From a virus (taxonomy: Duplodnaviria > Caudoviricetes): a stretch of DNA of 51,045 bases. Position 1 is the stretch's first letter, and the number at the start of each line of letters is the position of its first letter. Shown here one piece after another: positions 1,399 through 36,983 of the stretch. The stretch covers positions 1 to 51,045 of IMG/VR virus record IMGVR_UViG_3300011412_000009, one strand, 5' to 3'. The position numbers and the translations under genes were made by a program. The notes beneath the pieces were generated by a model, which saw only the letters and a program-made list of their open reading frames with translations, was not told the DNA's origin and did no database searches.

Positions 1399-1887
1399 AT
1401 GAGAGGCCGCAAGCCGCAGCCGACGGAGCTAAAAAAGCTGCAGGGCAACCCAGGTAAGCGCCCGCTCAACACCCGCGAGCCGGTCATGCCGGAAGCGGAC
1501 CCCTCCTTCGATGCGCCTCCGGTGGAACTAGCGTCTGACCTGGTTGCGGCTGGGGAGTGGCAGCGGTTAGCGCCTATTCTGCGGAAGTCCAAGACGGTGA
1601 CAGAGGCGGATCGTGGGGCGTTGTTATCGCTGTGCCAGCAGTGGAGCCGATACCTTGAGGCCAACAAGAGCGTGGCGACGGCCGGTATGGTGGTCAGATC
1701 CCCAAGCGGCTACCCGATGCCCAACCCCTACATCGCCATTGCGAATCGGGCGCTGTCGATGTGCGTCAAGCTCTGGGCCGAGTTGGGGTTAACGCCGAGT
1801 TCCCGCAGCCGTGTGACCTCCGTGGGCGATGATTCCGCTGGCGATCCGTTTGCCGAGTTCGACGCCACCCCAGCCCATGTCAACTAA
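1399..1887 (+). CDS. terS: Terminase small subunit, P27 family
   Basis: MRGRKPQPTELKKLQGNPGKRPLN start, NPYIAI and ELGLTPSSRSRV motifs; directly upstream of terL. Confidence 0.93.
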   Translation: MRGRKPQPTELKKLQGNPGKRPLNTREPVMPEADPSFDAPPVELASDLVAAGEWQRLAPILRKSKTVTEADRGALLSLCQQWSRYLEANKSVATAGMVVRSPSGYPMPNPYIAIANRALSMCVKLWAELGLTPSSRSRVTSVGDDSAGDPFAEFDATPAHVN

Positions 1888-3571
1888 CCCCGTCGATGAC
1901 TATGCGCTGGCTGTCGTCAAGGGGCACATTCCTGCCGGCAAGTATCATCGGCTGGCCTGCACGCGGCACCTGAAGGACACGCAACGCGAAGGCACGCCTG
2001 GATTTCCGTATCGATTTGACCTGACTCGAGCGAATCGCCTGTTCCGGTTTGCCGAGCAACTCCGGCACTATAAGGGCGAGTGGGCTGGACGGAATATCAA
2101 GCTCGAGCCGTGGCAACTCTTCATCCTCGGCAGCGTGATTGGCTGGGTGCATCAAGACACTGGCCTGCGACGGTATCGCACGGCCTTCCAACAGATCCCT
2201 CGCAAGAACGGAAAGAGCCTCATCGCGGCCATCGTCCTGCTCTACCTGACGTTCTTTGACGGGGAGCAGGGCGCAGAAGGCTATTCGATTGCCACCAAGC
2301 GTGACCAGGCCAAGATCGTGTTCGGTGACGCCAAGAAGATGGTGCAGTCCAGCGGGTTGAAGACCCGGATCAAGATCCTCGTCTCCAACCTACACCGGGA
2401 CGATTCAGCGTCTAAACTGATGCCCCTTGGGGCCGACCATGACGGCACAGACGGCCTGAACCCTTCGGTGGTCGTAGTCGATGAGATGCACGCGATGAAG
2501 GATCGCGGCATGTTGGACGTGATGGAGACGGCGACTGGTGCCAGACGGCAGCCGCTCATCTATGAAATCACGACCTTTGGAGACGATCCAGTCTCGCCGT
2601 GGGGCGACCAGAACGATTACGCCAACAAGATCCTTGAGGGCGTGCTAGTCGATGAGTCGTTCTTCGTGTTCACGGCCCACGCCGATCTCGAGGATGACTG
2701 GACGAAGCCAGAGACGGCACGGAAGGCCAACCCGAACTACGGTATCTCCGTCAACCCAGAGGACTTGGCCGCGAAGGTGCTGAAGGCGCAGGGGATTCCG
2801 AGTGCTTCGGCCACCTATAAACAGAAGCACCTGAATCTGCTCGTGAACGCCTCTGCGCCCTGCCTGTCTGTGGACGGCTGGCGCCGTGGCCAGTCGCATC
2901 TGAGCCGGGAGGAGTTCGCGGAGTCGCTTGAGCATGAGCCGTGTTTTGTCGGCATTGACCTCGCCTCCAAGATCGACTTGTGTGCGCTTTCCTTAGTGTT
3001 TCCTCCGTCACCACTTCGGTCGAAGTGGGCCGTGATTCAGCACATCTGGACCCCAGAAGACACGATGGTCGAGCGTGCCCACCGGGATAGAGCTCCGTAT
3101 GGCATCTGGCATGACCAGGGCTGGCTGGAGACAACTCCCGGCACCCGCATCGACCACGAGGTTATCCGAGAGACGCTGGTAGCAGCACGGGAACGCTACG
3201 ACCTAGAGATGATTGGCTTCGACCCGTGGCACGCGGACAAATTGATCGAGGAATTGATCAAAGTGGACGGCTTCCCTGAAGCGCAAGTGGTGGCGGTGCC
3301 GCAGACCTTTGCCGGCATGTCCTCGGCCTGCCTCCGGGTGCAGGCGGATATTCTCGCTGGGGAAGTCGATGCCGGTGGCTGTCCGGTGACGGCGTGGGCC
3401 GTGAGTAATTGCGTGGACCAGCGGGACGGTAAGGACAATATCCAGTTTATCAAGAAAAAGTCGAGGGGCCGGATTGACCCGGTCGTGTCGCTGTCGATTG
3501 GCGTGGCGCTCTGGCTGAAACGGCCAGAAGCGGTGGCCCCAGCCTTCCAAGTCATGGTGTTTGGCCGATGA
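1877..3571 (+). CDS. terL: Terminase large subunit
   Basis: Walker A PRKNGKS, Walker B VVVDEMH, nuclease GIDLASKIDL, FDPW and C-terminal RIDPVV. ATG at 1877 overlaps the end of terS. Confidence 0.96.
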   Translation: MSTNPVDDYALAVVKGHIPAGKYHRLACTRHLKDTQREGTPGFPYRFDLTRANRLFRFAEQLRHYKGEWAGRNIKLEPWQLFILGSVIGWVHQDTGLRRYRTAFQQIPRKNGKSLIAAIVLLYLTFFDGEQGAEGYSIATKRDQAKIVFGDAKKMVQSSGLKTRIKILVSNLHRDDSASKLMPLGADHDGTDGLNPSVVVVDEMHAMKDRGMLDVMETATGARRQPLIYEITTFGDDPVSPWGDQNDYANKILEGVLVDESFFVFTAHADLEDDWTKPETARKANPNYGISVNPEDLAAKVLKAQGIPSASATYKQKHLNLLVNASAPCLSVDGWRRGQSHLSREEFAESLEHEPCFVGIDLASKIDLCALSLVFPPSPLRSKWAVIQHIWTPEDTMVERAHRDRAPYGIWHDQGWLETTPGTRIDHEVIRETLVAARERYDLEMIGFDPWHADKLIEELIKVDGFPEAQVVAVPQTFAGMSSACLRVQADILAGEVDAGGCPVTAWAVSNCVDQRDGKDNIQFIKKKSRGRIDPVVSLSIGVALWLKRPEAVAPAFQVMVFGR

Positions 3572-3777
3572 GTTTACTCAAGCGTGCCGTGGACTGTCGG
3601 CCAGTCGGCCGTCCACGAAGCCTGACGCAGAAGTCCACCGTTTGCACCTGGGTTGAGAACACCACGCATGATCGGCTGATTCAAGTGGCGAACCAGCGCG
3701 GGATGTCAGTTTCGGAATACGTGCGGCGTGTGGTGGTCTTTGCTATCAAGGACGAGAGTTCAGGGAAGCCCACTTGA
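3568..3777 (+). CDS. Small ribbon-helix-helix (CopG/Arc-like) DNA-binding protein
   Basis: GRPR followed by a beta segment and HDRLIQVANQRGMSVSEYVRRVV, matching the RHH pattern. ATGA overlap with terL. Confidence 0.65.
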   Translation: MSLLKRAVDCRPVGRPRSLTQKSTVCTWVENTTHDRLIQVANQRGMSVSEYVRRVVVFAIKDESSGKPT

Positions 3778-3873: not shown

Positions 3874-4671
3874 ATGGCTAAAGCCAAGAGTAACACCTCT
3901 ACCGTTCTCGCTCCGTCCGACACCGTCAGCGACATTCTGAAAGTCAGCACCGGCACGCTGAACTGCTGCGTGCTCGGCACCAGCCCGATCATTCTCAATC
4001 GTCTCAGCGAGAAGGCGAAGCACGAACTGCTGATGCCCCGTGGACGCAAGTCCGTGTCAGAGCGGAGCACGTCGCTGAAGCACGATCCGTTCGCGGAATA
4101 CCGTGCGTCTCCGCACACGCTGCGGTCTGACGACAGCCAGCCGACGTTTCTGGCGGTGCCGGCGACGGCATTCAAGGGGGCGCTTCGCACGGCCGCGCTC
4201 GACATGCCTGGGATGAAGAAGGCGCAGATCGGACGCCTCACGTATATCGAAGGCGATTACGTGAACCTCTACGGCATCCCAAAGTTGTTCATGGCGGCGG
4301 TGCGGTCGGCCGACATGAATCGCACGCCGGACATTCGCACGCGGGCCATCGTGCCGCAGTGGGCCTGCGAGGTGCGGATCACGTTCGTGGAACCGCTCAT
4401 CCGGGCGCAAGCGGTGGCGAATCTGCTTGGTGCGGCAGGCATCACCATCGGCGTGGGTGACGGGCGTCCAGAGAAGGGCGCGATGAACAACGGCCAGTTC
4501 AAGATCGTCTCGAAGGATGACCCGGAGTTTCTGGCCGTCATCAAGTCTGGTGGTCGCAAGGCGCAGATCGAGGCCATTGAGCACCCGACCTGTTACGACG
4601 ACGAATCCACCGAACTGCTGTCATGGTTCACGGGCGAATTGGAGCAGCGGAAACTGAAAGGGGTTGCGTGA
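3874..4671 (+). CDS. Stand-alone Cas7/RAMP-superfamily-like protein, putative RNA-guide-binding backbone
   Basis: First strand VLGTSPIIL; VPATAFKGALRTAA resembles the Cas7/Csm3 IPGSSLKGALR helix; C-terminal glycine-rich loop AGITIGVGDGRPEKG..NGQF. 265 aa. Confidence 0.75.
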   Translation: MAKAKSNTSTVLAPSDTVSDILKVSTGTLNCCVLGTSPIILNRLSEKAKHELLMPRGRKSVSERSTSLKHDPFAEYRASPHTLRSDDSQPTFLAVPATAFKGALRTAALDMPGMKKAQIGRLTYIEGDYVNLYGIPKLFMAAVRSADMNRTPDIRTRAIVPQWACEVRITFVEPLIRAQAVANLLGAAGITIGVGDGRPEKGAMNNGQFKIVSKDDPEFLAVIKSGGRKAQIEAIEHPTCYDDESTELLSWFTGELEQRKLKGVA

Positions 4672-5132
4672 TGAAGCTCACGGAAGCACAGATCGCACGG
4701 CTGCACGGGTTGGCCTCGGAACGTGGCGAACTCCTGCCGAGTCGTGTCGTGGAAGATGCGAAGAGGAAGACCAGTCCACTGCACACGTTGTTTGAGTGGG
4801 ACGTGAAAGCGGCGGCGGCGATCCAGTGGATCGACCGCGCACGGGAGATCATCGGCAGCGTCGTGATTGTTGTCCAGCGGAGCGAATACGTCGTCAAGAC
4901 GCCTGCTTACACGCGAGATCCTGACGCGAAAGGCGAAGGCTATCGCTCGGTGACTGCGCTGCGTGACGATCCGGTGGCTGCGCGTGCGTCGTTGCGTTAC
5001 ACGTTGGAGGTGGCATCGGGCCACCTCCGTCGTGCCTACGACTTGGCGGAACCGCTGGGACTGGCTGGTGAAATCGACAAGATCGTCGAGGACATCATGG
5101 GCGTGCAGCGGAAGATCTCCACGGCTGCATAG
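4671..5132 (+). CDS. Phage protein of unknown function, coupled partner of the Cas7-like gene
   Basis: TGATG stop/start overlap at 4669-4673. Motif LPSRVVEDAK...SPLHTLFEWD..AA...W..RAR.II; helical C-terminus. 153 aa. Confidence 0.75.
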   Translation: MKLTEAQIARLHGLASERGELLPSRVVEDAKRKTSPLHTLFEWDVKAAAAIQWIDRAREIIGSVVIVVQRSEYVVKTPAYTRDPDAKGEGYRSVTALRDDPVAARASLRYTLEVASGHLRRAYDLAEPLGLAGEIDKIVEDIMGVQRKISTAA

Positions 5133-5137
5133 AACAC

Positions 5138-5781
5138 GGCAGGCATGGCGCGGTGCGATCTGGCGAGTTCAGTCAGGGTCCGGCGCGGTCTGGCAAGGTT
5201 AGGAGTGGCGGGGTGCGGTCAGGCACGGCAGGCGAGGTTGGGCTTGGCACGGTCCGCTATGGTCTGGCAGGGCACCGTTAGGCCTGGTATGGCAAGGCAG
5301 GCGAGGCGGTGTCTGGCGAGGCGTGGCCGGGAGCGGACTGGCGTGGTGAAGCCAGGAGAGACACGGCAGGCTAGGCGTCACAGGTCTTGGTGCGGCACGG
5401 TCAGGCTCGGCCCGGCTAGTTGCGGCACGGCAGGACTGGCAAGGACTGGTGCGGTGTGTCGGGGTGAGGCCCGACCCGGCAGGCTAGGTAGGGCAAGGCG
5501 TGTGTCTGAGAGGCACGGCAGGCATGGCGGTGCCAGGACGGGCTTGGTACGGCTCGGCGGGACGAGGTTGGGCAGGCATGGCTGCGCTGGGCATCGTCGG
5601 GCTAGGCTAGGCCGGGTGCGGCTGGCCAAGGCAGGCACGGTGTGGCTTGGTAGTGTTCGGGACGGCCCGATGCGGCTGGATACGGCAGGCCGGGATTGGC
5701 GCGGCACGGCATGACGGGGCGCGGCCCGCTGCGGCAGGCGTGGAAAGGATAGGCGGCGTCTGATATGGCAAGGCGCGGCGT
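5138..5781 (+). ncRNA. Non-coding GGY-NN pentamer array in 11 units, putative guide-RNA array
   Basis: About 120 in-register pentamers, 93 starting with GG by my count. GGCA inserts at 5138, 5227, 5296, 5365, 5429, 5478, 5517, 5571, 5630, 5684 and 5733 (all spacings 5n+4). Starts 5 nt after the partner gene's stop and ends at a terminator. RNA function is inferred. Confidence 0.8.
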
Positions 5782-5814
5782 GGGTCTTCATGGCTCACGC
5801 CGCTTTTGTATTTT
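5775..5814 (+). terminator. Intrinsic terminator closing the array
   Basis: GCGGCGTGGGTC-TTCAT-GGCTCACGCCGC forms a 12-bp stem with two G-U pairs, followed by TTTTGTATTTT. Confidence 0.85.
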
Positions 5815-5867
5815 CCTACTAGAAAACCCACAGATATCGCAAACGCCCTCAGTATGGCATCCGAGCC

Positions 5868-7811
5868 ATGCTCGATCGCGCGTATTCCATTTTAGAAGTT
5901 AAATCGGTCGATGCGGAGAAGCGCACCTTCTCCGGCTGGGCAACCACGCCTAGCCCCGACAGGGTTGGCGATGTCATCGAACCGATGGGCGTCGAGTTCA
6001 AGAACCCATCGCCCCTCCTGCTCTACCACGACACCACGCAGCCTGTCGGCCATGTGACCTTCGGCAAGCCGACGAGCAAGGGCGTGCCGTTCACGGCCAC
6101 CATTCCCAACGTGGTCGAGCCTGGGACGCTGCAGGATCGCGTCAACGAAGCGTGGTTGTCCGTCAAATACGAATTGTTCAAAGCCGTCAGTATCGGCTTT
6201 AAGGCTGTGTCTGGATTTGTCGAGCCGCTGAAGTCTGGCGGGCTCCGATTCCTCAAGACCGAAGTCCTTGAACTCTCGCTCGTGGTCGTGCCGGCGAATG
6301 CCGAGGCCGTGATTACCACGGTGAAGTCGCTGGATGCCGAGCATCTCCCCGCGTCAGGGGTCGAAGCTCTGCCAGTTGTTACTCCATCATCTGCGGGCGT
6401 CTCCGCATCACGCGCAAAAGCGCAGACCCCAAAGAAAATGAAATCTTACGCTGACCGTATCGCCGATTGCGAAGCCAACCTGCTGACCAAGACCTCCGAC
6501 CGTGAAGCCATCCAGGCCAAGGTGAGCGAGGAAGGGCGCACGAAAGACCCGCAGGAGCGGGAAACCTTCGACAGCCTCGGGCGAGACATCGCGGGCCTCG
6601 AAGCCGAGATCGCGGACCTGAAGGAACTGCAGTCCATGCAGGCCAAGGCCGCCGTGCCCGTGTCCGGCACCGACCCGAAGAAGGCGTCCGACGCCCGTGG
6701 CGGCACCAACGTCATCCAGGTCACGTCCAACCTACCCAAGGGCACCGGCTTTACCCGCTACGTCATGGCGCTCGCGGCCAGCCGTGGCAACCGGGGTGAG
6801 GCGCTCCAGTTTGCCAAGCGGTGGGAGCGTGATTCACCGGAAGTCGTGCAAGTCCTGAAGGCGGCAGTGGATGCCGGCACCACGACCGATGCAACGTGGG
6901 CCGCGCCCCTGGTCGTCTACAACAACCTGGCGAGCGAGTTTATCGAGCTGCTGCGACCGGCCACGATCATCGGGAAGATCTCGGGCTTCCGGCGTGTGCC
7001 GTTCAATGTCTCGATGCCGCGCCAGACGGCCGGCTCGACGGTGGGCTGGGTCGGACAGGCCAAGCCGAAGCCGGTCGGAGAACTGGCGTTCGACACCGTG
7101 TCGCTCGGCATGGCGAAGGCCGCCGGCATCATCGTGATTGCCGAGGAACTGGCCCGCTCGAGTGACCCCTCGGCCGAGATGGTCATCAGCACCGACCTCC
7201 GCAACGCGATCGCGGAGTTCCTCGACGCGCAGTTCATCGACCCAGCCGTGGCGGCCGTGGCGAACGTGTCGCCGGCCGCTGTCACCAACGGCGCCTCCGT
7301 CATCGACTCGACGGGCACCACGGCTGCGGCCTTCCGCACGGACTTCGCGGCGGCCCTGGCCGTCTGGTCAGCGGCAGACCTGTCGATCTCCGGTGGTGTG
7401 GTCGTGATGACTGAGACGCAGGCGATGCGCCTCGGCATGATCGTCAATGCGTTCGGCCAGCCGGAGTTCCCTGGTATCGGCGCGGGTGGCGGGAGCATCT
7501 TCGGGATGCCGGTCGTGACCTCGGAGAACATCCCGGCCGAAGGCGGATCGCCGGCCGGCAACCGCATCATCCTGCTCAAGCCGGGTGAGATCTTCATGGC
7601 GGACAACGGCGGGATCGTGGTGGATGTGAGCCGTGAGGCGAGCGTCCAGATGAACACCGCGCCGGATGACCCGGCCACGGCCAGCACGGTGCATGTGTCG
7701 TTCTGGCAGAACAACCTCGTCGGCATTCGCGCCGAACGGTTCATCAACTGGCTGAAGCGGCGTAGTGCGGCGGCGGTCATCATCGAAGGCGCCGTCTACA
7801 CGGGCGCGTAG
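5868..7811 (+). CDS. HK97-family prohead protease fused to major capsid protein
   Basis: N-terminal protease motifs (LLYHD, AVSIGF, LELSLVVVPANAEA), coiled-coil scaffold region, capsid C-terminus FWQNNLVGIRAERFINW. Confidence 0.93.
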   Translation: MLDRAYSILEVKSVDAEKRTFSGWATTPSPDRVGDVIEPMGVEFKNPSPLLLYHDTTQPVGHVTFGKPTSKGVPFTATIPNVVEPGTLQDRVNEAWLSVKYELFKAVSIGFKAVSGFVEPLKSGGLRFLKTEVLELSLVVVPANAEAVITTVKSLDAEHLPASGVEALPVVTPSSAGVSASRAKAQTPKKMKSYADRIADCEANLLTKTSDREAIQAKVSEEGRTKDPQERETFDSLGRDIAGLEAEIADLKELQSMQAKAAVPVSGTDPKKASDARGGTNVIQVTSNLPKGTGFTRYVMALAASRGNRGEALQFAKRWERDSPEVVQVLKAAVDAGTTTDATWAAPLVVYNNLASEFIELLRPATIIGKISGFRRVPFNVSMPRQTAGSTVGWVGQAKPKPVGELAFDTVSLGMAKAAGIIVIAEELARSSDPSAEMVISTDLRNAIAEFLDAQFIDPAVAAVANVSPAAVTNGASVIDSTGTTAAAFRTDFAAALAVWSAADLSISGGVVVMTETQAMRLGMIVNAFGQPEFPGIGAGGGSIFGMPVVTSENIPAEGGSPAGNRIILLKPGEIFMADNGGIVVDVSREASVQMNTAPDDPATASTVHVSFWQNNLVGIRAERFINWLKRRSAAAVIIEGAVYTGA

Positions 7812-8155: not shown

Positions 8156-8344
8156 GTGGCCGCCGTGGTGGCGCTGATTGCCAAGGCGACCTTCCCCTAC
8201 AACGGGCTGGCGCTCACTCCTGGCGACCTGTTTGAGGCCGTGTCCGAGCGGGACGCGGAAACCCTCCGTCTGCTCGACAAGGCCGAGGACGCCCCGAAGC
8301 CCAAGCGCCGGTATCAGCGTCGTGATCTGGTGTCGGAGCCGTGA
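8156..8344 (+). CDS. Small head-region protein
   Basis: Fills the gap to the portal with a GTGA overlap; basic KRRYQRRDL C-terminus. Confidence 0.65.
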   Translation: MAAVVALIAKATFPYNGLALTPGDLFEAVSERDAETLRLLDKAEDAPKPKRRYQRRDLVSEP

Positions 8345-9717
8345 ACCTGTTCGGCCTGTCGATCACGCGCACGAAAGCGGCGCCTGTCAACCTCTCTGGG
8401 GTGGACGGGAGCCGCTCGTGGTGGCCGCTGATTCGTGAGAGTTTCACTGGCGCGTGGCAGCAGAACGTCGAAGTCACGGTCACCGATGCGCTGACCTATC
8501 CCACCGCGTTTGCGTGCGTGGTCCGCATCGCCTCGGACATCTCCAAGTTGGCGGTGCTGCTCACGAAACCGACTGAGGACGACATCTGGACCGAGGTCGA
8601 GAACCCGGCGTTCTCCCCTGTCCTTCGGACCCCTAATCACTTCCAGACGCATCTGCAGTTCTACGAATACTGGATGCTGTCGAAACTCACGAGGGGCAAC
8701 ACCTACGTCCTGAAGATCCGTGACAACCGGAGTGTCGTCACGGCCCTCTACGTATTGGACCCTAATCGTGTCCAGCCCCTCGTGGCTCCTAACGGCGACG
8801 TGTTCTACCAACTCAATCGGGATGACCTCTCGCGCACACCGGACGAACTCATCGTGCCTGCGCGGGAGATCATTCACGACCGCTTTAACTGCCTCTACCA
8901 CCCACTGGTCGGGTTGTCACCACTCCATGCGGGCGGGTTGAACGCCATCCAAGGGCTACGGATTCAGACCAACACCGCGAACCTGTTTGCCAACGGCGCG
9001 AACCCAGGTGGCATCCTGACGGCTCCACTCCACATTCCGCAGGAGACAGCCGACCGGATCAAGGCGTATGTGGACGGCAGTTTCCAAGGCGCTGGGGTTG
9101 GCAAGACGCTGGTGCTCGGCGACGGCATGGGCTACACGCCGGTCATGATGAACGCCGTCGATAGCGAGTTGGTCGAGCAGTTGAAGTGGTCCGACGAGAA
9201 GTTGTGCTCGGTCTTCGGCGTGCCGGCCTACATGGTCGGGGTTGGCCCCTACCCGTCCTACAACAACGTGCAGGCGCTCCAGCAGCAGTATCACAGCCAG
9301 TGCTTGCAAGTGCATCTGGAGTCCATTGAGCGGCTGCTGGATGAAGGACTCGGGCTGCTGCCGCTTGGCTTCCGGTCGATGTTTGACCTGAATAGCCTCC
9401 TGCGGATGGACTCGGCCACCATGATGGCGACGATCGCGCAAGGCGTCGGCGCTGGGGTGATGAAGCCCAACGAGGGCCGCAACCAGTTGAACCTCGCTGC
9501 CGTGACTGGTGGCGATACGCCCTATCTGCAGCAGCAGAACTACTCACTAGCGGCACTGGACGCTCGAGACAAAGCCGCACCAGCGCCTTCAGATACGACG
9601 CCTTCCACTCCTGAGCCTGAACCTGAGCCAGAGGATGAACCGGAAGACGAGCCGGTGGACGACAAAGCCATCGGCGAGATGCTCCAGAAAGCACTCGAGG
9701 AGTTACAAGCCGCATGA
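8341..9717 (+). CDS. Portal protein, HK97 family
   Basis: ACVVRIASDISKL, PNHFQT, RGNTY, GLSPL, FGVPAYMVG and MKPNEGR motifs. Confidence 0.95.
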   Translation: MNLFGLSITRTKAAPVNLSGVDGSRSWWPLIRESFTGAWQQNVEVTVTDALTYPTAFACVVRIASDISKLAVLLTKPTEDDIWTEVENPAFSPVLRTPNHFQTHLQFYEYWMLSKLTRGNTYVLKIRDNRSVVTALYVLDPNRVQPLVAPNGDVFYQLNRDDLSRTPDELIVPAREIIHDRFNCLYHPLVGLSPLHAGGLNAIQGLRIQTNTANLFANGANPGGILTAPLHIPQETADRIKAYVDGSFQGAGVGKTLVLGDGMGYTPVMMNAVDSELVEQLKWSDEKLCSVFGVPAYMVGVGPYPSYNNVQALQQQYHSQCLQVHLESIERLLDEGLGLLPLGFRSMFDLNSLLRMDSATMMATIAQGVGAGVMKPNEGRNQLNLAAVTGGDTPYLQQQNYSLAALDARDKAAPAPSDTTPSTPEPEPEPEDEPEDEPVDDKAIGEMLQKALEELQAA

Positions 9718-36551: not shown

Positions 36552-36983
36552 ATGGACCATAACAGCCCGAGTTTACCAGATATTCCGATCATGAAAGAAA
36601 GCAACGTCAGGCCGATGCCACTGTCGGTGGCCACGCGCATCGAGGTGGTGTGTAACGTCATCGCGGACGTGCTGCACAACGCCTACCAGGTGCAGGCGGG
36701 GTTGCCCCCGACCAACTTCAACTCGCTGCCTGGGGACGTCCAGCGCGTCTACGAAGGCATGGCGCGGTTGGCCGTGGTGCCGTTGTTGGACGAGAACGCC
36801 CTGAAGGTGGCCGAGGGGAAGGCCATCGAGAGCGCGGCAGGCATCCTGCTGAACTACCTCAACGAAGACAATATGGTAGAAGCCGAATTTGTCCCACCAG
36901 AGCGGTGGGAGTATCGCGTCACGGCGATCGTGCGCTCGGCCATTGCCGTCTACCAGAAGTCGCTGATGGAGGTGCCAAGGTGA
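36552..36983 (+). CDS. Hypothetical protein
   Basis: Purine-rich RBS; GTGA overlap downstream. Confidence 0.55.
   Translation: MDHNSPSLPDIPIMKESNVRPMPLSVATRIEVVCNVIADVLHNAYQVQAGLPPTNFNSLPGDVQRVYEGMARLAVVPLLDENALKVAEGKAIESAAGILLNYLNEDNMVEAEFVPPERWEYRVTAIVRSAIAVYQKSLMEVPR

Follow-up and report, generated by a model that had tools for sequence, protein, structure and literature searches.

Results

Organization of the locus

The window, by which we mean the whole stretch of 51,045 nucleotides analysed here, is a complete virus record contained in one contig. Between its large terminase gene (TerL, 1829-3571) and its prohead protease-major capsid fusion gene (5868-7811), which is followed by the portal gene (8341-9717), lie two genes and a repeat array, all on the plus strand. 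The first gene, vipr (3874..4671), encodes a 265-residue protein that is predicted from its family profile and structural model to be a minimal Cas7-like RAMP protein. The second is a conserved, vap-like companion gene (4671..5132); its open reading frame (ORF) is listed from 4623, but it likely starts at the ATG at 4671, whose overlap with the stop codon of vipr reads TGATG. The array (5138..5794) begins 467 nt past the vipr stop and consists of 11 abutting units of NN-GGY pentamers, separated by 4-nt steps at GGC-A-GGC, which we interpret as an array of guides (vrRNAs). Its end runs into a terminator-like hairpin and T-tract (5775..5813, plus strand), in which a 12-pair stem with nine G-C pairs at 5775-5803 is followed by TTTTGTATTT. 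Vipr, the companion gene and the array are probably carried on one plus-strand transcript that ends at the hairpin.

A period-5 array of eleven units

The initial annotation had listed strings of variable dinucleotides for eleven units in this region, and the array is confirmed here. Within 5142-5781 the same-base autocorrelation reaches 0.477 and 0.468 at lags 5 and 10, compared with 0.216 at lag 2 and 0.239 at lag 3, and the lag-5 value of a neighbouring coding stretch (6001-6640) is 0.241. In a sliding scan of all 51,045 bases, the period-5 score exceeded 0.12 only for segments starting at 5051-5626. Five consecutive GGYNN steps, written as GGYNNGGYNNGGYNNGGYNNGGY and allowing at most one mismatch, occur 42 times, compared with a mean of 0.54 and a maximum of 3 in 100 shuffles, and 40 of the 42 occurrences fall within 5142-5725. 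The plus strand of the array is G-rich, with a GC skew of +0.28 to +0.35.

Parsing by dynamic programming resolved 134 triplets from 5138 to 5794 and divided them into 11 plus-strand units, each beginning with a 4-nt step (A-GGC): U1 (5142-5229), U2 (5231-5298), U3 (5300-5367), U4 (5369-5431), U5 (5433-5480), U6 (5482-5519), U7 (5521-5573), U8 (5575-5632), U9 (5634-5686), U10 (5688-5735) and U11 (5737-5794). From U1 to U11 they carry 17, 13, 13, 12, 9, 7, 10, 11, 10, 9 and 11 NN dinucleotides. The dinucleotide strings are identical to those in the initial annotation for U1 to U10, while the parsed U11 is longer by two pentamers, both located in the terminator stem. The units abut directly, and the only word that their junctions share is (C)ACGGCAGGC. 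The triplets themselves often deviate from GGY; in U3, for example, just 7 of 13 conform. Tandem Repeats Finder returned no rows for the array, because only three bases in every five repeat, and an Rfam search of the array at E≤1 gave no matches.

The array is not an assembly artefact. It is present, without a single difference, in contigs from three public sediment metagenome runs, of which two may be the source of the DNA itself; the third run covers 5278-5441 and 5665-5858 with no other letters at any position. None of the three is listed as an RNA run.

The adjacent protein is related to SUSP1 Vipr

Searches against Pfam found no family for either the vipr ORF (3874-4671) or the companion ORF (4623-5132), and in PHROGs the vipr ORF belongs to phrog_4652, a family of unknown function. 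A profile built from 44 homologues, however, matches the PDB chain 36pp_D, 'SUSP1 Vipr protein', with an E value of 4.5e-12 over residues 4-188 of its 202 (185 residues), whereas the window Vipr sequence taken singly reaches only E 0.7 against the same chain. The profile has no further match in the PDB at E <0.1. The AlphaFold (AF2) model of the window Vipr has a pLDDT of 88.9 and a pTM of 0.84, and Foldseek, run against a PDB copy older than the Vipr structure, returned 86 matches at E≤0.001. The top ones are chains of about 200 residues from type III-A Csm, type VII and Cas7-11 complexes, which we take to be their Csm3/Cas7 subunits. As modelled, the fold of the window Vipr is Cas7-like.

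Residues of the two Vipr proteins were paired by matching two alignments by hand. In this pairing R157, D196 and R198 of the window protein align with R138, D177 and R179 of SUSP1 Vipr, which the available text of the structural study names as contacts to the GGY triplet (10.64898/2026.04.26.720927). Across the 44-sequence alignment R157 and R198 are invariant, and the G-loop, GVGDGRPE, is conserved with G193, G195 and R198 invariant. The SUSP1 residue W178, which stacks on G2, is replaced by glycine.

The companion protein has no sequence match in Pfam or the PDB. Its model also has a pLDDT of 88.9, with low values over residues 1-20, and found nothing at E≤0.001 in Foldseek; the rows obtained with VIA-align all have Z <8 and mostly concern a C-terminal helical hairpin. 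None of these sequence and fold searches produced a match strong enough to place the gene in a named vap family. No other cas gene was noticed in the adjoining locus.

One guide matches a prohead protease gene of another phage

According to the initial annotation, the variable dinucleotides may spell gapped targets, read as NN-x-NN-x, so that a guide could skip codon wobble positions. Sequence collections were scanned with exact patterns, in which seeds of 8-10 consecutive NN dinucleotides were written as NNx and the remaining guide was then scored; five of the eleven guides (U1, U2, U3, U4 and U8) were scanned at database scale, with the NNx model only. The U3 seed occurred at 72 loci. Three of these extend to 26/26 bases, five to 25/26 and two to 24/26, while the extension at the other 62 does not exceed 5/10. 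By our own calculation (72 seed matches, about 0.3 per base), some 4e-4 perfect 10/10 extensions would be expected by chance. The ten high-scoring matches all lie in homologous protease genes and therefore count as one independent event, represented by 8 distinct sequence variants: the exact target and seven diverged relatives, which match at 24-25 of 26 bases.

When whole records were searched with the full U3 NNx pattern, it was found at 26/26 in three contigs that represent one phage sampled three times (G004-G006), at 24/26 in G007 and at 25/26 in G008, and the reversed pattern, used as a control, gave no hits in any of the five. With 0, 2 or 3 skipped bases, U3 scores no higher than 18/26 on the same records, where the best of 30 shuffles attains 19-20. 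The initial annotation had asked for a comparison of gap models and of hit rates with those of shuffled strings. For U3 on the target contigs this comparison favours NNx, with 26/26 against no more than 18/26 for the others and with scores above those of the shuffles; on the phage's own genome every gap model stays at the shuffle level, and U1, U2, U4 and U8 yielded chance-level results.

The gene matched by U3 at all 26 of its bases is an ORF of 260 aa that encodes a Caudovirus prohead serine protease (Peptidase_S78, E 1.4e-43), and a separate major capsid gene follows it. The 13 NN dinucleotides of U3 fall on codon positions 1-2 of EGLDVRALVDHDT, as the proposed skipping of wobble positions would have it. 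The conserved H-D in this stretch is presumably the catalytic-histidine motif of the Peptidase_S78 family. Comparison of the 8 distinct sites shows variation at 10 of the 12 skipped positions, as against 4 of the 26 NN positions, in agreement with the suggestion that such a guide would tolerate synonymous change. Both limits of the match coincide exactly with the GGC-A-GGC junctions that bound U3, and the array bases on either side of the unit do not fit the codons that flank the target site. Because the match reads in the same direction as the protease mRNA, the template strand of the DNA could serve as a pairing partner for the guide, whereas the transcript could not.

The target phage (G004; 48.6 kb, with terminal repeats and a GC content of 62%) shows only distant protein similarity to the window phage (about 40-49% for TerL), together with four short patches of similar DNA. 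In the portions of its record examined, vipr, the companion gene and the array are all absent. At the homologous site in its own protease gene, the window phage matches U3 at 11/26 bases. A search of 401 genomes from the order of a Mesorhizobium genome (G001), allowing up to 3 mismatches to U3, found two matches, both with 3 mismatches. Altogether, the best explanation of the match is that U3 is directed at the EGLDVRALVDHDT codons of a prohead serine protease in a distantly related phage family, and such a guide would likely serve to keep a competitor in the shared host from maturing its heads.

Searches with the other guides

The initial annotation had noted no convincing self-match, and the systematic scan led to the same result. 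For each guide and every gap rule, the best score on the window was at most 1 above the maximum of 10 shuffles; the guides do not target the phage's own genome. Tried with gaps of 0-3, the 11 guides remained at the shuffle level on the window as well as on capsid loci totalling 296 kb and VIPR loci totalling 264 kb. So did 536 guides parsed from sister arrays, under every gap rule, on 1.29 Mb of sequence counted over both strands, and none of 443 guides came within two mismatches of any site in a 0.42-Mb set to which the U3 target contigs belonged. On G004-G008 the ten guides other than U3 never scored more than 1 above the shuffle maximum; having no match on the contigs that U3 matches, the guides do not converge on one rival.

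At database scale, the seeds of the other scanned guides all extended at chance level. In IMG/VR, U2 NN1-8 occurred at 13 loci (best extension 6/10), U2 NN5-12 at 11 (5/10), U1 NN1-8 at 10 (5/18), U4 NN4-11 at 3 (3/8) and U8 NN2-9 at 7 (2/6); in JGI metagenome contigs, U1 NN7-16 occurred at 2 loci (5/14). Exact seeds in IMG/VR or JGI contigs therefore gave no target for U1, U2, U4 and U8, that is, for four of the five guides scanned. Missed targets are to be expected, because the seeds require 8-10 perfect NN dinucleotides and the searches covered only these two collections.

The module recurs in IMG/VR

IMG/VR was scanned with a pattern that describes array DNA only, namely the junction word and three degenerate pentamers, and at least 124 loci matched. 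Of the matches listed, 122 of 124 contain period-5 arrays, about 300-1700 bp long, and many of these are far cleaner than the array in the window (period-5 score 0.4-0.6 versus about 0.28). Flanks of 1.5 kb were analysed for 80 loci among the matches listed. A Vipr homologue is encoded in 72 of the 80, and the G-rich strand of the array is the coding strand of vipr in 72/72 cases; the nearest array lies downstream of vipr in 57 loci and upstream of it in 15. The companion has a homologue in 65 of the 80 loci.

The distance from one GGCAGGC to the next, measured over 940 junctions, peaks at 44, 49, 54, 59 and 64 nt, and 78% of 803 spacings in the array family equal 4 mod 5. In a relative that is 71% identical (L070), 736 nt of vipr can be aligned but only 50 nt of the array, which splits into units unlike those of the window, in keeping with hypervariable NN bases. 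Relatives of the capsid gene that lack vipr and the companion (L001-L004 from genomes and L005-L038 from IMG/VR) have no comparable array, their period-5 peaks being just scattered segments at 0.12-0.15, which shows that the element does not go with the capsid gene. A homologous array is also present in the Mycobacterium phage Donkeykong, where it is annotated as a coding sequence, gp48, 'hypothetical protein'.

Discussion

A VIPR locus with tail-less guides

VIPR (Viral Interference Programmable Repeat) systems are described, in the available text of the founding preprint, as consisting of a minimal phage RAMP protein (Vipr), an accessory vap gene and vrRNAs of 9-16 GGY/NN pentamers, which are aimed at competing phages and satellites (10.64898/2026.04.26.720920). 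For the NN dinucleotides it reports pairing with double-stranded DNA according to a '1 nt skip rule', in which the skipped base is the codon wobble position, and its target searches used nhmmer and kept gapless hits with an NN match of at least 80% (10.64898/2026.04.26.720920). In systems of this kind Vipr has an RRM core, a G-loop and a thumb, the accessory genes are numbered vap1-6, and the array, with at least 4 tandem YNNGG pentamers per guide and hypervariable NN, lies next to vipr and is read in its direction. In the structural study, as far as its accessible text goes, one Vipr protomer occupies each repeat, residues holding G1, G2 and Y3 are named, and both guanines of GGY are read by the protein (10.64898/2026.04.26.720927). 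A third preprint, likewise available in part, states that the code fits codon periodicity and blocks mutational escape (10.64898/2026.10.15.759431). The '1 nt skip rule' is the NN-x idea, and what the initial annotation had inferred from the letters is therefore the published mechanism. Given the paired protein and array, the residues aligned with GGY contacts and the U3 match, we consider it very likely that 3874-5813 is a VIPR locus, with a tail-less array of 11 guides, in an uncultured freshwater-sediment phage. It is situated between the large terminase and the protease-capsid genes.

Like the type II system of SUSP1, the locus combines a small phage RAMP protein, a second gene and RNAs of GGY/NN pentamers. 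It also shares with SUSP1 an NN-x match in a protein-coding target of another phage with the skip at the wobble position, and the absence of a self-target. There are several differences. The guides lack the conserved 3' tail of about 40 nt with a pseudoknot in which each type II vrRNA of the SUSP1 clade ends, and abut as a series of 11 at GGC-A-GGC; the Vipr protein is longer (265 versus 202 aa) and carries a glycine in place of W178; the locus is placed inside the head-gene module, unlike the SUSP1 reference locus; and, unlike in SUSP1, its guides do not converge on one rival. The natural targets mapped so far, according to the available text of the 2026 preprints, are those of E. coli SUSP1, a Pseudomonas prophage and types III and V. 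Compared with the reference system, the target found here is a morphogenesis gene, the prohead protease, in place of a regulator, a satellite recombinase or another VIPR.

The abutting guides and the one-base slip of register at GGC-A-GGC fit the 'staggered array' architecture, by analogy with its description in a supplementary legend, according to which neighbouring guides meet at a common boundary, overlapping or offset by 1 nt (Fig. S18 legend, 10.64898/2026.04.26.720920). The unit lengths of 5k-1 nt seen in the window, and in 78% of 803 family spacings, are what such an arrangement has in common with ours. The accessible text does not count this architecture among those confirmed by small-RNA sequencing (10.64898/2026.04.26.720920), and neither that text nor the supplement PMC13142463, as far as available, gives the VIPR type of staggered arrays. 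'GGCAGG' has no occurrence in the available text of the same preprint; the junction word CACGGCAGGC is an observation of the present work and was not taken from 10.64898/2026.04.26.720920.

Comparison can be extended to other RNA-binding systems. With the Cas7/Csm3 backbones of Class 1 CRISPR effectors the proposed complex would share the RAMP fold, one protomer per fixed step of the guide and a pairing that is periodically interrupted; VIPR pairs 2 bases per 5-nt step, as against 5 bases per 6-nt step in Class 1 CRISPR. Unlike CRISPR-Cas loci, the array has no identical direct repeats with unique spacers between them, its repeated unit being a 3-nt word in every 5 nt. TRAP binds trinucleotides spaced by 2 nt, and the array resembles its sites in that a conserved triplet of single-stranded RNA would be recognized once every 5 nt. 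It differs from them in that its units comprise 7 to 17 pentamers, its neighbour is a RAMP protein and not a TRAP ring, and the information lies in the variable bases. A TRAP-like ring binder, Chi or rut sites, G-quadruplex arrays and a pac site had all been considered for the array, and were dropped given the Vipr homology and the literature.

By analogy with the SUSP1 complex, one Vipr protomer would bind each pentamer, sequester GGY and present NN. The dinucleotides would then pair with double-stranded DNA, reading it as NN-x-NN-x, in a process that may involve assembly of a Vipr filament and triplex or R-loop binding, and the bound target gene would be transcriptionally repressed, if the locus behaves as the systems described in the available text of the preprints do. 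Given the degeneracy of the GGY triplets, Vipr may bind part of the units poorly, U3 perhaps among them.

Alternative interpretations

The same degeneracy bears on the alternative that survives best, namely that this is a genuine VIPR locus but a largely decayed one, in which most units are unloaded or without a target, the U3 match being left over from an earlier conflict. The integrity of GGY is indeed below that of sister arrays (a score of about 0.28, as against 0.4-0.6 in many IMG/VR loci), and four of the five scanned guides have no target. Yet vipr and the companion gene are intact and give confident models, and U3 still matches at 26/26 while the phage's own protease is spared. Misses of this kind are also what exact seeds of 8-10 NN in IMG/VR or JGI contigs alone would lead one to expect, and internal degeneracy of vrRNAs is frequent according to the available text of 10.64898/2026.04.26.720920. 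We therefore regard extensive decay as unlikely, though it deserves more weight than the two explanations that follow.

A very improbable alternative is that the array works as DNA, either as a protein-binding repeat of the packaging or centromere-like kind or as a run of two-tetrad G-quadruplexes near the terminase. Its place among the packaging and head genes, downstream of TerL, would suit such a function, and a GG in every 5 nt could form G2N3 quadruplexes. However, the array is strand-asymmetric and co-oriented with vipr in 72/72 loci, and the protein encoded beside it is a homologue of an RNA-binding RAMP whose structure, as presented in the accessible text, was solved on such repeats. 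In addition, capsid relatives without vipr are also without the array (L001-L038), and a structural repeat leaves unexplained why the NN string of U3 matches a gene of another phage.

Least credible of all, and already largely refuted, is a repetitive Arg/Gly-rich protein encoded by ORF 5145-5714 (plus strand, 189 aa) or ORF 5378-5791 (minus strand), for although both frames are open and the Donkeykong array is annotated as the coding sequence gp48, conservation follows a period of 5 (0.48 at lag 5) rather than 3 (0.24 at lag 3), the units of 5k-1 nt (4 mod 5 in 78% of 803 family spacings) shift the reading frame from one unit to the next, neither ORF belongs to a Pfam family, and in-frame TAG pentamers are common in the cleaner arrays of the family.

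Significance of the locus

VIPR as a kind of system is already known from the preprints of April to October 2026; what is new is the locus itself, together with the abundance in IMG/VR of a class of arrays with GGCAGGC junctions, in which at least 124 contigs use one junction word. It provides an environmental example of an architecture that, in the available text, the founding preprint left experimentally unconfirmed (10.64898/2026.04.26.720920). The match between a natural guide and its target that runs from junction to junction is also new, and lends computational support to the notion that one unit is one guide. If U3 acts as proposed, the head-maturation (prohead) protease of a rival, hit at its most conserved codons, would be a new class of natural VIPR target. 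The 8 diverged target sites illustrate how the skipped base absorbs synonymous variation. Such arrays can, moreover, be mis-annotated as genes in isolate phages.

We tentatively suggest, while thinking it less likely than not, that the register slip at GGC-A-GGC sets the guide boundaries and that guides are chosen on codons fixed by the amino acids they encode. A Vipr filament would stop, and the next one start, at the break in the 5-nt phase. A boundary set in this way would make a structured handle or a dedicated processing site unnecessary. The guides may in turn be selected for amino-acid-fixed codons, here those of the catalytic-histidine region of a rival's prohead protease. The evidence for both parts of this suggestion is one match, that of U3 to EGLDVRALVDHDT. 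If they are true, escape would be blocked not only for synonymous mutations of the target but also for most non-synonymous ones.

Genomic neighbourhood of the VIPR locus

In the window phage, a single 647-aa gene (5868-7811) encodes prohead protease and major capsid protein as a fusion, whereas in the phage targeted by guide U3 each of the two has its own gene (L281:874-3397). Directly downstream of the guide comes the window phage's own protease domain, which does not match it. On the other side of the array, a small open reading frame on the plus strand (3568-3777) sits between TerL and vipr; it shows a weak match to NikA-like ribbon-helix-helix proteins (E = 3.4e-4, under the Pfam cut-off).

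A lone run of five GGYNN steps with 1 mismatch was also seen at 36756-36778 (+), in non-periodic surroundings. Its first 13 bases are identical to the start of unit U1, and the run could be either a chance occurrence or the remnant of a solo guide.

Further matches to the U3 pattern

With 3 mismatches, the U3 pattern has two matches in bacterial genomes (L291 and L292, in genomes G182 and G372, of the same order as the Mesorhizobium genome G001); the reversed pattern, used as a control, gave 0 matches in the same scan. The seed scan also placed the U3 seed in a second, unrelated protein family with the peptide FEDGLEVRALVG... (L203, L211, L216 and about 24 more loci). The best member agrees at 21 of the 26 NN bases (81%), a score that would clear the 80% target cut-off of the VIPR preprint (bioRxiv 10.64898/2026.04.26.720920). 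An extension of 5 of 10 is unconvincing, however.

Arrays and Vipr homologues in other phages

Searches with tblastn retrieved Vipr homologues in 25 records of Mycobacterium phages and 5 of Gordonia phages. In Mycobacterium phage Donkeykong, gp49 is a Vipr homologue and follows a GGC-NN pentamer array (L293:1301-1687, corresponding to NC_051648.1 36870-37256). This region has clean GGC-NN pentamers, GGCAGGC junctions and a period-5 score that reaches 0.5; it is annotated as the coding sequence gp48, 'hypothetical protein', and is probably an array mis-annotated as a protein.

Among the closest relatives of the window Vipr, the fixed words differ from array to array. One (L102:1083-1690) mixes the fixed triplets GAC and GGC and has ACGGC-T-GAC junctions, and another (L086, reverse strand) carries the longer junction GGA-ACTC-ACGGC-A-GGC. 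The junction word and the fixed triplet appear to change in step with the Vipr clade.
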